DNA from: Eledone cirrhosa
Lineage: Eukaryota
DNA: 64,000 nucleotides
Reading direction: 5' to 3'
Assembly (NCBI GenBank): GCA_964016885.1
Contig: OZ024740.1
Coordinates: 297,538,001 to 297,602,000 of the forward strand
Below are positions 1,721-45,497 of the stretch, piece by piece. Under the pieces are notes generated by a model. It was given only the letters and a program-made list of their open reading frames with translations. It did not search any database and was not told the DNA's origin. Position numbers and translations under genes: made by a program. Every line of letters begins with the position of its first letter. Positions within the stretch are counted from its first letter, which is position 1.

Positions 1721-1734
1721 TTATTTCCCCATAA
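1721..1734 (-). CDS. Candidate terminal coding segment (VMGK-stop)
   Basis: Acceptor acttttgcAG, then an in-frame TAA; the gene could instead continue beyond the window. Confidence 0.35.
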
Positions 1735-2936
1735 CTGCAAAAGTTATTAACATTGTGTCTAAGTCAGAAATAAATATTGTTATGCTGCTAATAGGATTGT
1801 GCAATCAAGAAATAGCATAGCTATAATCATTTCCATCCCTTTAGTTTCTGAGTTCAAATCTTACTGTGGTCAACTATGATGCTTATTTCTCTGGTGGTCA
1901 CAAAATAGATAGAAGAAATACATTTTGATTGATTGATTTAACTAAACACTTTTTTCCTGTTAAAGATATTTCCTGTTTATGTGTCTGCTTCACGAAAACA
2001 GCAGTGACATGTATTTTTATGTCACCTAAAGCAGTATATCTATTGACTTCGAATCAAGGAGTGAGCTTCTATGTAGTCTCATAATTTTCAAGAAACGCCT
2101 GCCAAACCCCATAAAGATAACTGACACATTGAATATTGTTGCATTGAAAAAGATGGTATGAACACGGTTGTAATGTCTTAGATCATAGGTCCTGAAAAGG
2201 ATGGTGTGCTCACAACTGTAATGTCTCTGTAGAGCTGGCCTAGGGCTAAACATCTACAACAACTATCTGTTTAGTTCATTCAGTTCATTTAGTTCATAGT
2301 GCAGCATTCGTATCAAAACAAAAACGCGTCTACCTTGCTTAGACCCAGTGCTACCAAATTGTACTTTAATTGGTTTCTTACTTAATAGGAACCCACAATA
2401 TATATAGAGGACGAAGAATAATTGTATAATGTTGGGTATAGTTCACTGGAAATCATTTGTAGCGTAATTGAAGGAAAACTGCTTCACACGCATGTCAAAA
2501 ACTTTGTCTCCGACTAGGAAGGCCGAAAGATTAACATGAAATATCTCAATAGTATTTTATTTGACCCTTAACTTAAAATGGAAATGTTGAGGCGACGCCT
2601 TGACATACGGCGGCGCAGCAATTTACTCTCCAAGCCCAACATAATTGATTCTTTCCGTCCTCTCTACCAGAGAGAGAGAGAGAGAGAGAGAGAGAGAGAG
2701 AGAGAGAGAGAGAGAGAGAGAGAGAGAGAGAGAGAGAGAGAGAGAGAGACAGAGAGAGAGGGGGAGGGAGAGGGAGAGAGAACCGACTCCCGTCTTATTT
2801 ACCGACCTCGAAAGGAGGAACGACAAAGCTGAGCTCGGTGGGATTTGAACTCAGTGCATTGTTTTTAATCCAACGCCTTAATGACTCTATTTATTTACCG
2901 CCTTACCCATGACATTAATTTAATTCAAAGCCATAC

Positions 2937-3050
2937 CTGTTGTAGGTTCTATAGTTAAATCAGTCCGCCATCTCATTGGCATGTTTATCTTAGCTTCTCC
3001 AGATCTTCCGGGAAAAACATTGAACAGAGGGTCAAAGGTTATTCGTAGCA
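2937..3050 (-). CDS. C-terminal-region exon MLRITFDPLFNVFPGRSGEAKINMPMRWRTDLTIEPTT
   Basis: cattttcAG and CAG|gtatgg; 114 bp, phase 1-1. Confidence 0.7.
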
Positions 3051-4344
3051 CTGAAAATGGATGAGAGAGGATTTTTGATATCAGATGATATACAACACTT
3101 GGATATTGGTAATTTTTAATAGTAGGATGTGTTTGAGAAAGCGAAGTGGGTGTACTTCTGGTACTATATTGCACATAAATGTTGACCGTGTAGTTGCAGG
3201 AAGGATATCGATGGGTGAGAGAGAATGAGAGAGAGGGGGAAGAGAAGAGAGAGAGAATAGGAAGAAGAGAGAGTGAAAGGAAGAGAGAAAGAAGGAGAGA
3301 TAAAAAAGAAAGTGACTGTGGTGTAAAGAGAATAAAGAATTAAAGGACTCGTGTAAAATGGGAAGTTAGGTGAGAAGTACCGTATTTCCCGGCACCGAAG
3401 ACGCTTCGTCATTGAGGATGCACCCTAATTTTGACAACCAAAAATTTGAAAGAAAATAATAAACATCCTTCGGCCTCCAGGACACATGATAGATATTTTA
3501 GACTTATTTTTAAAAATACGACGCCAGGAAATGCGGTATGTAGTGTTAGAAAAACACAGATGGAGACCGTGAAACAGAAACAATACATTTTTTTTATATT
3601 TCTTGGGATACCACAACACAACATGTAGAAGGACTGACACTATCACTGACATCAAACTACACACCTTTCTTAATAATAGAGATACAGCTATGTACTATTA
3701 CCACATTCATCGACATAACCGTTACAAAACTGCTGACTGCACCACTACCATCATACCACATATAATCATTAAAACTAGAAAGACAACATCGCCATCCAAG
3801 TTTGTTGATTTCTTCGTGTTGGGTCCTGGAAATTGGTCACTTAGCTCTGATCTCGATCAGGCGAACTACAACAAACTGAGAACAACTCATACGCAAGAAG
3901 AAAACCATTACATCCATCAACACAACCACTATGCCATCTCTGTTAATACCATTGTCCCCATAACAACAATTGAAAGATCCTACTAAACACACACCAGAAC
4001 AAACCACCAATATCTCCCACGCGCCACAATATGGTCATACAGCACACTTCCACAGCCACAGAACGTATATAACACATCACTATTCCAGCTATCAATACTA
4101 CCCACAGCTCCACTATTAGAACAACATTATCATTACGTACCACCATCACTCCTATCATCACACATCGCTACAATGCTAGCAAAGCTACTACACACTCTTA
4201 CTCCATCCATTCAATCCTTTAATTATATCACTATTACAACATTAAAACAGCAGCAACGTCACTACATATTGCTACCACTACATTCTGGAAATACTAACCA
4301 AGTCTCATATTTCTCTCAAATAACAACCTAACTGTGACACCTTC

Positions 4345-4660
4345 TCTAGTGGCAAACAGGTGCGTTCGACTACCAGCCCAGGCTCTGCTGCCCGCCAAGC
4401 AGAAGAGGGCAAACTCTTCAAGCATCGGCCGCTCACTGATGGGTTTGTGGTAGAGCATGTAGCAATGGAGACTTCCGGCGTTCATGGCCCCCGGACCACA
4501 TCCTTGCGCACTGCTATTGGAGCAGAGTTCGCTGCCCGCAGGTGCGATCCCTGCAAAGTGGAGTGGCTGTTCCAGCGCATCTCTCTCACACTCCTCCGGG
4601 GAAATGTATTCTCCATCCATTCGGCCGGGACCGAGAGGCGGAGGATATGTTAGTTGGAAG
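4345..4660 (+). mobile_element. CRE-clade-like LINE 3' remnant (endonuclease C-terminus)
   Basis: AMETSGVHGPRT...WLFQRISLTLLRGNVFSI. Confidence 0.75.
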
Positions 4661-42620: not shown

Positions 42621-43020
42621 AACGGACGGAGGAAAATACCGATGCGCCAACTCCTATATCTAGATCTCTCCGACATTTATTCAAGATTACTGAACTATTT
42701 CAGGAGCTACAAAAACATATTTCGGCAGCCGTCACTCGCAATCGAGTATGACTTGGTAGCATGTACTTTGCTTTTGCTAATTTTTTTTTTAGGAGCCCAG
42801 ACAGTCATGAACAAAGACAGACTCCCTGTTGATCCTCCATCCAGTGGAATATCCACGATATGATAGATGGAAGGTGAGAGGGCTGTACGATGAGCTGATT
42901 TTTTCTTTATCGATCCCAAAATGATGATAGGAAAAATGGCCCACGGCGGGAGTTGAACTCACAACGCCGAGACCAGGAACAAATAACCAATACTGTAACA
43001 ACATAATAACCGTAACTTAC

Positions 43021-43056
43021 CATTCACTCTTGACTTGAACATTTCATGGAGGGAAA
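43021..43056 (-). CDS. 36-bp exon (L)SLHEMFKSRVN, phase 1-1
   Basis: Acceptor cactctattgtAG, donor G|gtaagt; in frame with the first chitin-binding exon. Confidence 0.7.
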
Positions 43057-45411
43057 CTACAATAGAGTGAATAGAATTATAGGGATTAGATTGTGTGATA
43101 GCGTGAATGTATGTATGTATGTATGTATGTATGTATGGATACCCGATCACGTGGTTAGACCACTGAGAGTGAAGGACCCCTAGCCTTTGTCATGGCATTC
43201 TTCTAGGAGAAGGCAACTCAGGAAACTGGGATAACTCCGACATAAAACCTGCGGCTCAGTAGTTACCGATGATGTTGATCTTTTCTTCTTTTCGAGTTAT
43301 AGCTACTGTCGCTCAGAGAGTGGGATTGGCTCAGTGCACAGTCTTTCCTCACTTTAAAAAATATCTTCACGCACAGGCATTGCACGATAGAATTAATTAA
43401 CAATTATTAATTATGTTATATTGTGCAATGGCCATACTCAGTAACGAAGGGTCAGCTATCATCATATATGTATGTACGTGTGTATGTATGTATGTATGGA
43501 GGGATGGATGGATTCATGTGTATGTATGTCTTCTAGTTTTCATTCAGACGTCTCTCTGAGAAGGTCACTATGATGTAAAGCCTGTGACTTTATTTGCATT
43601 CAATGATGTAGTTCTACTTTTTTTGGTAGATTCGATGTTCAGAAAGCCTTTCCTCGTTTAAAAAAGCTTCGAGCACAGGCATCGCTTGATATCTGACATC
43701 TGTTTAAGCATCAAGAAATCTAGTTGCAGCCATCATGTATGTATGTATATACGTATATATGCCTGTATGTACGCGTAACTCCTGGTGTAGGCTTAGGGGT
43801 GCCGTAATGGCCTGCAACCTTTCTTGACCTAACTCTTCTCCAAGTCAGAATACAGCCGATTTCTTCCGAAGAGAAAGGGAGGATTGAGTGAGAGAGTAAG
43901 GGGAGGAATGAACTCCAGTACTTGACTGGAACTTTATTTCAGCGACATCAAAAGGATGAAAGTTGACCTCGGCAAGATTTCAACTCAGAGAGCAGAGAGC
44001 CGGAACAAACACCGCAAAGCATTTTTTCTGATCTTCTAACCACCCTGCCAATTCGCCAACTAGGTTATAAGTGGAGATAGTGGGGGATTAGAAGTTATTT
44101 AGTTTCAGTACTCTCCCAACTCTGTTCGTGGCTTGGTTTCATTTTTATCGTTTTTTTTTTCGTTTTTTTTTCTTTTTCTTTCATATTTCCATCAATATTT
44201 GTAATGTTATTTATACATCGTGCATGGATTTATTGTCTGTAATCTTATTAAATTTATTAATTGTTTTGTGTAATTTAAAGAGAAAAACAATACAACTGAA
44301 TAAATTGATAGAAATATTTGTTTCGTATTTAGTGGATAAATGAGTTGGTAAATTTACTAGATTTAGTGAGAGTGTGGAATAAGTTGACAGTAGAGAACTA
44401 GTATGAGAAAAGTGAGTGTAGTGTCAGTTGAGTAATGGGGGAGGGGATAATGTGTAGGATGAGAGAAATGAGTGCGTGGAGTGATAAAAAAAAAGTGTAT
44501 TGAATGAGAGGGGGAATAATTTTACTGGAAACACAAGAGGTGGATGAGAAACTTGAGGTGTATGTATAGTGTTAGTGGACTGAGTGGGTGAAACGAGTAC
44601 TCTCGGGTCCCAAATAATAGAGGTGGTGGAATAAGCGGAGGGGTGGAAAATCGGTGATTTTTCTATGTTGTCTCTCTTGATCTTTTTTTTAAAAAACAGA
44701 TTTAGTCATTTAGTTTACATATTGAGACCCCAATCCATCCTATTTATTTTATAACGTATAGGATTTCTAGTAATGTACTTTTTTGTCTTGAATAATATTT
44801 TTTAATGTTTAAAGAAAATTGTCGCAGGAATGCTACCACTTAAAATAAAGTTTCGCCGGAGATAGATTAGCAAAATTTAATGAGGGGATGGGGTCTGAAG
44901 AAGTAATAAGCGGAAGGGAACGATTATTCGAGACCTGAGAATATGATAAATTAGGGAAATGTGTGAGTTAAGCTTCTGAAGGAGTAAATGAGTGAAAAAT
45001 ACAGGAATATTTAAAGTTTGAAATAAACACTCTACTGTTCAACATATTGGATGGGTTGGATCTGTAATTCAAAGGGCCAAACTTCTCACATATTGTGTCA
45101 CGTTGAATCTCCCTGAGAATTATGATAATGGTGCACACGTCCGTAGGAACCTCAGTCACACACAAGATAATTTCATGAGGAGACTGTTGATCGACCAACT
45201 GGACCAATCATCACCAACACCGACGGAGACCAATTCCAACCGCTGCCGCCTTGCGGTAGTCAACATTTAACGTTGAAAGACGTTTTCAAAGAATTACTTC
45301 TACTTATATATTTATGTGCGGATGTGCAGAGAAAAAGCTATAAGAGATTTGGTAATACTAGATTCACTGAACATGATGAAGAGTTAAAAGAGATAAGGTC
45401 TCCAGTCTTAC

Positions 45412-45497
45412 GTATTCTGCATGCTGTGCTATTCGAACGAAACCTTTGGCAAATGACTTGACATCTTTGATAAATCTCGTTGTTGACTGGTTCTCTG
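45412..45497 (-). CDS. Exon [28 protein letters not shown] (phase 2 to 1)
   Basis: Acceptor ttctttgatAG, donor C|gtaaga; 86 bp; phase fits the next exon; CxxxC motif. Confidence 0.55.

Follow-up and report, generated by a model that had tools for sequence, protein, structure and literature searches.

Octopuses possess chitinous beaks and radulae, and Gly-rich repeats occur in the suckerins, one group of cephalopod structural proteins. The gene considered here lies on the minus strand of a 64,000-nucleotide stretch of the octopod Eledone cirrhosa genome (GCA_964016885.1, contig OZ024740.1, positions 297,538,001 to 297,602,000; this whole stretch is called the window) and encodes, according to its exon model, two clusters of modules of the chitin-binding family CBM14 joined by one very long Gly/Thr/Ser spacer. 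Judged by sequence comparison, its layout is closest to that of insect complex peritrophins or intestinal mucins and not to that of resilin, the general design being already known from insects, and the window is, by comparison with related octopod proteins, the middle of a conserved, uncharacterised octopod gene.

Insect complex peritrophins, for instance Helicoverpa HaIIM86, are likewise secreted proteins with several CBM14 domains parted by long low-complexity blocks, which in HaIIM86 include Gly/Asp-rich blocks between the chitin-binding domains (CBDs) (PMC3065741 and PMC7663561 for peritrophins). The Eledone protein has every element by which a complex peritrophin is defined (a signal peptide, no fewer than three CBDs and one or more long spacers), but its spacer consists of Gly, Thr and Ser with almost no Pro or acidic residues, a Pro/Thr/Ser-rich mucin domain is absent, the Cys spacing is non-canonical and the sequence relationship to the insect proteins is limited to the generic domain. 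Resilin also joins a Gly-rich repetitive block to a chitin-binding part; its single R&R domain is central and is flanked on either side by an elastic block that contains Tyr and Pro and forms dityrosine cross-links (PMC9999432). Here, in contrast, the order of block and domains is reversed, the chitin-binding part is of the CBM14 type and Tyr is missing from the block. No R&R domain was found, since Pfam detects PF01607 alone in both full orthologues, and the likeness to resilin put forward in the initial annotation is weak in the absence of this domain and of Tyr for dityrosine. The squid beak proteins DgCBP-1 to 4, the His-rich beak proteins (HBPs), in which Gly-rich repeats are described (PMC9999432), and the suckerins are comparable in being structural proteins of cephalopods, from hard parts that are either chitinous or proteinaceous; however, their His/Tyr/Ala-rich repeats are absent here, and the word-based homologue searches returned no match to squid beak proteins or suckerins (the DgCBP proteins are set apart without direct sequence comparison). 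A shell-matrix protein of the Pif/BMSP family, in which VWA and/or laminin-G domains stand beside chitin-binding domains (PMC11291548), was rejected because neither accompanies PF01607 in the full orthologues.

The gene model was completed by mapping the Octopus sinensis and Argonauta proteins back onto the genome; window coordinates below 1 or above 64,000 refer to flanking DNA, of which 100 kb per side was analysed. This confirms that CBM14 exons stand on both sides of one long Gly/Ser/Thr exon in a single multi-exon gene of the minus strand, which has 30 exons over ~108 kb, 2,341 codons, one terminal stop and no in-frame stop. All 29 introns are GT-AG, in keeping with the phase-compatible GT-AG exons initially proposed. 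Read from the N-terminus, the domains are a signal peptide, a region with five Cys, four CBM14 modules, the 1,216-codon Gly/Thr/Ser exon and seven CBM14 modules. The exons in the window are the following, in order of translation, with percentages for the match to the O. sinensis protein unless stated.

52264..52326, minus strand: coding exon 2, contributing CxxxC to the small Cys region at the N-terminus (72% to residues 32-49; GT-AG and fitting phase; absent from the initial annotation)
45412..45497, minus strand: exon 3, N-terminal Cys region with three more Cys, not the gene start (60% to residues 49-78)
43021..43056, minus strand: exon 4, a short linker (67% to residues 79-90)
42281..42463, minus strand: CBM14-variant module M1 (PF01607 35.3 bits; 70% to M1)
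41943..42026, minus strand: linker exon carrying the dibasic site IRRD, which is conserved (67% to residues 150-178)
39811..39990, minus strand: module M2 (PF01607 37 bits; 88%)
38204..38386, minus strand: module M3 (PF01607 31.4 bits; 93%)
37009..37155, minus strand: Pro/acidic linker exon with REPIDP at its end (69% to residues 301-349)
35220..35399, minus strand: module M4 (PF01607 27.8 bits; 92%)
29247..32892, minus strand: Gly/Thr/Ser spacer exon of 3,646 nt in the assembly, which becomes 1,216 codons with two added bases (frame interrupted by one base near 30151 and again near 29345; the 3′ donor, weakest of 29, is uncertain)
27700..27774, minus strand: linker exon (65%; 80% to Argonauta)
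11657..11839, minus strand: module M5 (PF01607 27.7 bits; 85%; CBM14 fold predicted by AlphaFold)
9043..9128, minus strand: linker exon, 86 nt as assembled and one base short of frame, with an in-frame inner acceptor at 9108 (weak homology, 6 aa, E 0.65)
7749..7814, minus strand: linker exon (81%)
5197..5379, minus strand: module M6 (PF01607 27.5 bits; 90%)
2937..3050, minus strand: linker exon, the last in the window (52%)

The arrangement of modules around a central Gly block proposed in the initial annotation thus stands, but its extent and counts do not. Six module exons of 180-183 nt lie in the window (starting at 42463, 39990, 38386, 35399, 11839 and 5379), four before the Gly exon and two after it, instead of the five (3+2) first counted, and the whole gene reads 4+Gly+7. 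About 14 exons over 44 kb had been estimated; the model gives 15 within 1721-45497 and 16 in the whole window. Nor does the gene end at 45497 and 1721: the orthologue maps the signal-peptide exon to 68418-68324, 4.4 kb past the right window end, and a further exon to 52326, and 13 more exons with modules M7-M11 follow the last exon of the window and reach about -39315, the five modules starting at -6563, -9972, -25386, -34578 and -38883 and together spanning -6563 to -39065. A stop exon at 1758-1721 was dropped as gene end, because the orthologues have nothing equivalent and go on instead into an exon at -5388.

Secretion is predicted because the N-terminus is hydrophobic and no later transmembrane stretch occurs (hydropathy in a 19-aa window peaks at 2.5 at residues 12-20 and is at most 1.1 everywhere later). 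The N-terminal region (model residues 34-79) has five cysteines, an odd number, conserved in the window and O. sinensis, and two dibasic sites are kept in both: IRRD after M1 (166-168) and RR after the spacer (1613-1614). Dimerisation through the odd cysteines and processing at the dibasic sites are possible.

Searches with the six modules identified O. sinensis LOC118763360 (XP_036358690.1 and isoforms) and Argonauta hians GAB1598772.1, so that a cephalopod origin holds; the Octopus bimaculoides orthologue (XP_014781817.1 / XP_052824062.1) is annotated as fragments only. The best O. sinensis match is the same-numbered module for all 11 modules (70-93% identity), and all seven Argonauta modules match as well (72-87% identity). 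The octopod orthologues share the signal peptide, the five-Cys region, the 4 + 7 module order and the position of the Gly spacer; they differ in being uncharacterised database models, and in O. sinensis in a spacer of 795-807 aa, against 1,216 aa here, with another dominant repeat. Because the O. sinensis and Argonauta proteins hold the spacer and the downstream modules in a single chain, the proposal of a single gene is upheld over one in which the modules after the spacer are separate. In the 3.0-Gb genome itself, a single module used as query matched 12 sites, none of them outside a span of 130 kb. The word-based searches for homologues returned three strong octopod and two weak insect multi-CBM14 proteins among 423 candidates, three among 1,494 and one among 1,343; full-length relatives were found only in octopods, which, given the limited sensitivity of these searches, is weak evidence for absence in squid. 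All full-length matches are named ‘uncharacterized’, LOC118763360 and six other accessions are named in no paper of the searched literature, and in topic searches neither the titles nor the opening lines of the abstracts pointed to this protein, which agrees with the first impression that it is not a described protein. In the main text of an argonaut eggcase preprint, the chitin-binding protein mentioned is a different, LamG-bearing one; the protein considered here may nonetheless occur in the eggcase proteome.

The assignment of the modules to CBM14 is borne out by Pfam, in which all six window modules exceed the PF01607 (CBM_14) cut-off of 22.1, at 27.5-37 bits, and the whole O. sinensis and Argonauta proteins reach 221 and 141 bits; the Gly exon and one linker gave no match in the same scan. 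The pattern C-x8-C-x2-C-x17-C-x9-C-x12-C is present in 11/11 modules, with all 66 module cysteines intact. Compared with the peritrophin-A spacing given as canonical, C-x13/15-C-x5-C-x9-C-x12-C-x7-C (PMC3065741, PMC7663561), canonical Cys 2 and 6 are gone and two extra Cys are added N-terminally. By this spacing the modules are a CBM14 variant and not canonical peritrophin-A, and we infer that they contain a swapped disulfide. The predicted structure of M5 (predicted local distance difference test, pLDDT, 92) has the hevein-like two-sheet fold of CBM14, and the best 12 Foldseek rows obtained with it are all CBM14/peritrophin-A structures, with Der p 23 and then chitotriosidase leading and EHEP in 6th-7th place (best E 0.0075; template modelling score, TM, 0.55-0.67 for the top ten). 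A sequence profile of the modules retrieved seven solved relatives, all of the CBM14 family. In chitotriosidase, Pro451, Leu454 and Trp465 are reported as high-impact chitin-binding residues (PMC5459812). The Pro451 equivalent is kept in 11/11 modules, the Leu454 position is Thr in 10/11, and the Trp465 position, one residue past the printed alignment, is aromatic in 9/11 (Tyr in eight, Phe in one) and Ala or Leu in one module each. On balance, the modules probably bind chitin. The module tree has too few columns to order the duplications, with 8/29 inner branches supported.

The spacer of 1,216 aa contains 49.9% Gly, 20.1% Thr, 16.9% Ser, four Pro and about 3% charged residues, which bears out the poverty in charged, aromatic and Pro residues noted at the outset. 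Tyr, Phe, Trp and Cys are entirely lacking in the spacers of the Eledone window, O. sinensis and Argonauta. The O. sinensis spacer (795-807 aa) contains 44.7% Gly and that of Argonauta (at least 607 aa) 43.8%, so that the three range over 44-50% Gly, 24-37% Ser+Thr and 0.2-1.0% Pro, with different top hexamers. Since composition is conserved while length and repeat unit vary, the spacer appears to be selected on its physical make-up and not on its sequence, as expected of a physical spacer. AlphaFold gave no fold for a 200-aa piece (pLDDT 36, from a single sequence and uninformative without alignment), and the spacer is likely disordered. Several established types of block were considered and discarded. 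A collagen-like spacer is ruled out by a longest Gly-X-Y run of 7-9 triplets and by the lack of a collagen Pfam match; a Pro-rich mucin domain does not agree with 0.3% Pro and 50% Gly; and a chondroitin-sulfate proteoglycan core, for which attachment at Ser-Gly sites follows an acidic-context rule, does not agree with Ser-Gly sites having acidic neighbours in 0/37 cases in the window and 3/23 and 4/70 in the other two species.

The reading frame of the spacer requires comment. From 32892, the frame as assembled reaches a stop after 959 codons, caused by a one-base break near 30151; Gly repeats resume in another frame from about 30150, a second frame change lies near 29345, and beyond it the sequence again resembles the O. 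sinensis spacer end, which places the exon end at 29247 (RRMSTLKP...SRKNN versus RRTATLKP...SRKVN in O. sinensis). With one base allowed per break, the exon has 1,216 codons and joins the following exon in phase. The ~1,180-aa, 3.5-kb Gly exon initially described is thus indeed one long exon, but the 3,535 nt from 32892 to 29358 are not a multiple of three and the frame is broken twice. The breaks were compared with contigs from three sequencing runs of one sample (perhaps the assembled one) from one study, in which intron sequence is covered. Contigs of two of the three runs (one each, depth 4 and 2.9) span 29136-29500 without mismatch and with one extra base behind 29344, and both also differ from the assembly by one base at 27626, in an intron. 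The assembly thus has indel errors locally, and the break at 29345 most probably arose in assembly. The 30151 break, which sits within a G run, is bridged by no contig of the three runs, and other holes lie nearby. With the linker exon at 9128-9043, the one-base breaks number three in 7.0 kb of coding sequence. An open frame alone is weak proof in this exon because one antisense frame has only two stops, and in the 114-nt repeat copies of the spacer 13/34 single-base differences are silent against about 28% expected, which is not decisive. No second spacer copy was found in the genome (four matches, all this exon, with 150 of 902 candidates scored).

Taken together, these features suggest a two-ended tether of ~2,340 residues and, if unglycosylated, about 220 kDa, in which four and seven CBM14-type modules would grip different chitin fibrils and the probably disordered spacer would be a soft extensible link in octopod cuticle, a reading for which we put the balance at about even. 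Eleven modules that are probably weak individually, arranged in two clusters, would hold chitin by avidity, and a flexible chain of ~1,200 residues would allow a single molecule to connect distinct fibrils and to stretch. The odd number of N-terminal cysteines could permit chain-to-chain linking. A soft cuticle is favoured because the spacer lacks Tyr and His, and thus would not undergo sclerotisation of the resilin or beak type (PMC9999432 for resilin and squid beak proteins). Candidate sites are the sucker lining, the beak base, the radular membrane and the gut lining, and octopus suckers are described as bearing a continuously renewed chitinous cuticle (PMC3869157). From the module and spacer data together we infer that a flexible chitin cross-linker is the best reading.

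Several observations weigh against the tether. The Foldseek search with M5 gave zero rows at E 0.001 or better; the Leu454 position is Thr in 10/11 modules, and the Trp465 position is never Trp, and Ala or Leu in two modules. Der p 23 and the molluscan (Aplysia) EHEP are reported to have the CBM14 fold without binding chitin (PMC10619976). The spacer is without the Tyr and Pro of resilin and, at 37% Ser+Thr, may be a glycosylated, stiff chain and not a bare elastic one. Read contigs correct one of the three frame breaks, that at 29345. Finally, chitin binding is itself a prediction from sequence, and the sites of action named are candidates.

The main rival to the tether, although on balance we doubt it, is a mucin-type protein in which the Thr/Ser of the spacer would be densely O-glycosylated, forming a hydrated bottle-brush on chitin that would lubricate or space the gut or sucker lining and would not act as a spring. 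The Ser+Thr content of the window spacer would suit such a mucin-like brush, the CBD-spacer-CBD layout is described as defining the insect intestinal mucins and complex peritrophins (PMC3065741, PMC7663561), and the nearest Atlas clusters are CBM14 proteins with mucin names (scores 0.81-0.85, leads only). However, Gly makes up half of the residues, the 0.2-1.0% Pro of the three species contrasts with the 13.7% Pro and 67% Thr reported for the HaIIM86 mucin domain, and the Ser-Gly sites without acidic neighbours argue against a chondroitin-proteoglycan core.

It is unlikely, to a degree clearly beyond the doubt attached to the brush, that the modules have kept the CBM14 fold for another ligand (proteins, polyphenols or other glycans) in a multivalent mucus or matrix scaffold. 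The variant cysteine pattern and the altered Leu454 and Trp465 positions are consistent with such a change, as are the ranks in the fold search of Der p 23 (first) and EHEP (6th-7th), the nearest solved folds of the module, neither of which is reported to bind chitin (PMC10619976); Der p 23 likewise has only two core disulfides, but both are small proteins without a Gly spacer. Nevertheless, the Pro and the aromatic position are conserved, and the residue changes leave binding possible, since binding residues vary even among chitin-binding CBM14s (PMC10619976).

A stiff rod between the clusters, with the spacer folded as glycine-rich polyproline-II bundles, is very improbable. Such bundles exist in natural Gly-rich domains (bioRxiv 10.1101/2023.11.25.568672), 51-57% of the length of the three spacers falls in runs of at least four Gly-X-Y triplets, compared with 28-42% after shuffling, and a 10-residue period is seen in the spacers of two species. 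Yet the longest runs in the window (7-9 triplets) are no longer than in shuffles, the repeat unit varies by species, an excess over shuffles is expected for any short tandem repeat, and AlphaFold, for what a prediction without alignment can tell, gave no fold.

Weakest of all, and hardly to be credited, is a gene that is broken in this animal or decaying as a pseudogene (a real 30151 break would leave four modules followed by ~910 Gly-rich residues and a Val-rich tail of 46 aa): the three one-base breaks and the unbridged 30151 speak for it, but the correction of 29345 in 2/3 runs together with the 27626 error points to assembly indels, 30151 lies in a G run, in-frame stops are absent, 66/66 module cysteines and all splice sites are intact, and modules on both sides of the breaks are equally conserved.

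An extension of the flexible cross-linker, which we regard as improbable, is that of an octopod-specific elastic cross-linker of chitin in which splicing sets the spring length, giving a ladder of tether lengths that would tune the stiffness of sucker or beak cuticle in animals that would do without suckerins and His-rich beak proteins. Because Gly is mostly encoded by GGT (488 of about 607) and Ser mostly by AGT (184 of about 205), GT dinucleotides of the spacer exon are in excess in phase 1 (674/685), the phase of every downstream intron, and since they share this phase, use of nearly any internal donor would give a shorter spacer in frame. By a rough matrix, the terminal donor of the spacer is the weakest of the gene’s 29, and 630 internal phase-1 GT sites outscore it, only three reaching 2.5 bits. 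In O. sinensis, where the isoform numbering implies at least 50 isoforms, the four compared (X4, X7, X31 and X50) differ solely in spacer length, from 807 to 216 aa, and in three of the four different upstream points are joined to one downstream point. As a hypothesis, this pattern fits alternative donors, but wrongly mapped reads in repeats could also produce it; the O. sinensis junction is internal to the spacer and not at its end. If true, a splice-set spacer length would be an unusual way of tuning a material.

In the surroundings, an upstream neighbour on the minus strand (77160-140053) comprises at least eight EGF-like exons, which we take from their motif to be of the calcium-binding type, followed by three modules with the same six-Cys CBM14 variant, and ends 8.8 kb before the gene start. 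These modules (77336-86529) were dropped as part of the gene, as they follow EGF exons and end in a stop 8.8 kb before its start codon; the neighbour is a possible source or sister of the gene’s modules. Just before the spacer exon, an intronic tandem array at 33087-33761 (114-bp unit, 5.9 copies) is a dispersed repeat with 45 scored genome matches and has no relation to the period of 114 nt seen within the spacer. The long intron holds two nested fold-backs, at 12515-14390 and 25650-27030, whose arms of up to 371 nt are 97-99% complementary; they are either young mobile elements or assembly artefacts. Open stretches at 18864-19682 and 4324-4650, both on the plus strand, have no Pfam match but resemble 3′ fragments of retrotransposons without long terminal repeats.

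Elsewhere in the genome, a single intronless frame of 1,958 aa with tandem four-Cys CBM14-like modules starts at G000:C3:220853416 (plus strand), and at G000:C13:16361083 onward (plus strand) one CBM14 is followed in the same frame by ~1,700 Asn/Ser/Thr-rich residues. At G000:C6:75.00-75.21 Mb, about 30 CBM14 exon matches lie densely together and probably belong to one or more very large multi-CBM14 genes. No Gly spacer was found in the stretches examined at eight other inspected CBM14 loci.

With at least 110 CBM14 matches in the genome and a general layout known from insects, the protein is one among many and unsurprising in kind. Nonetheless, it establishes a CBM14 variant that has six cysteines with one pair of them shifted, and its module clusters at both ends of a Tyr-free and Pro-poor Gly spacer offer a usable template for chitin-composite materials. 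Since the suckerins and His-rich beak proteins of squid are reported as not found in O. bimaculoides (PMC9068888), the matrix proteins of octopuses are largely unnamed, and this gene is a concrete conserved candidate for the octopod chitin matrix.

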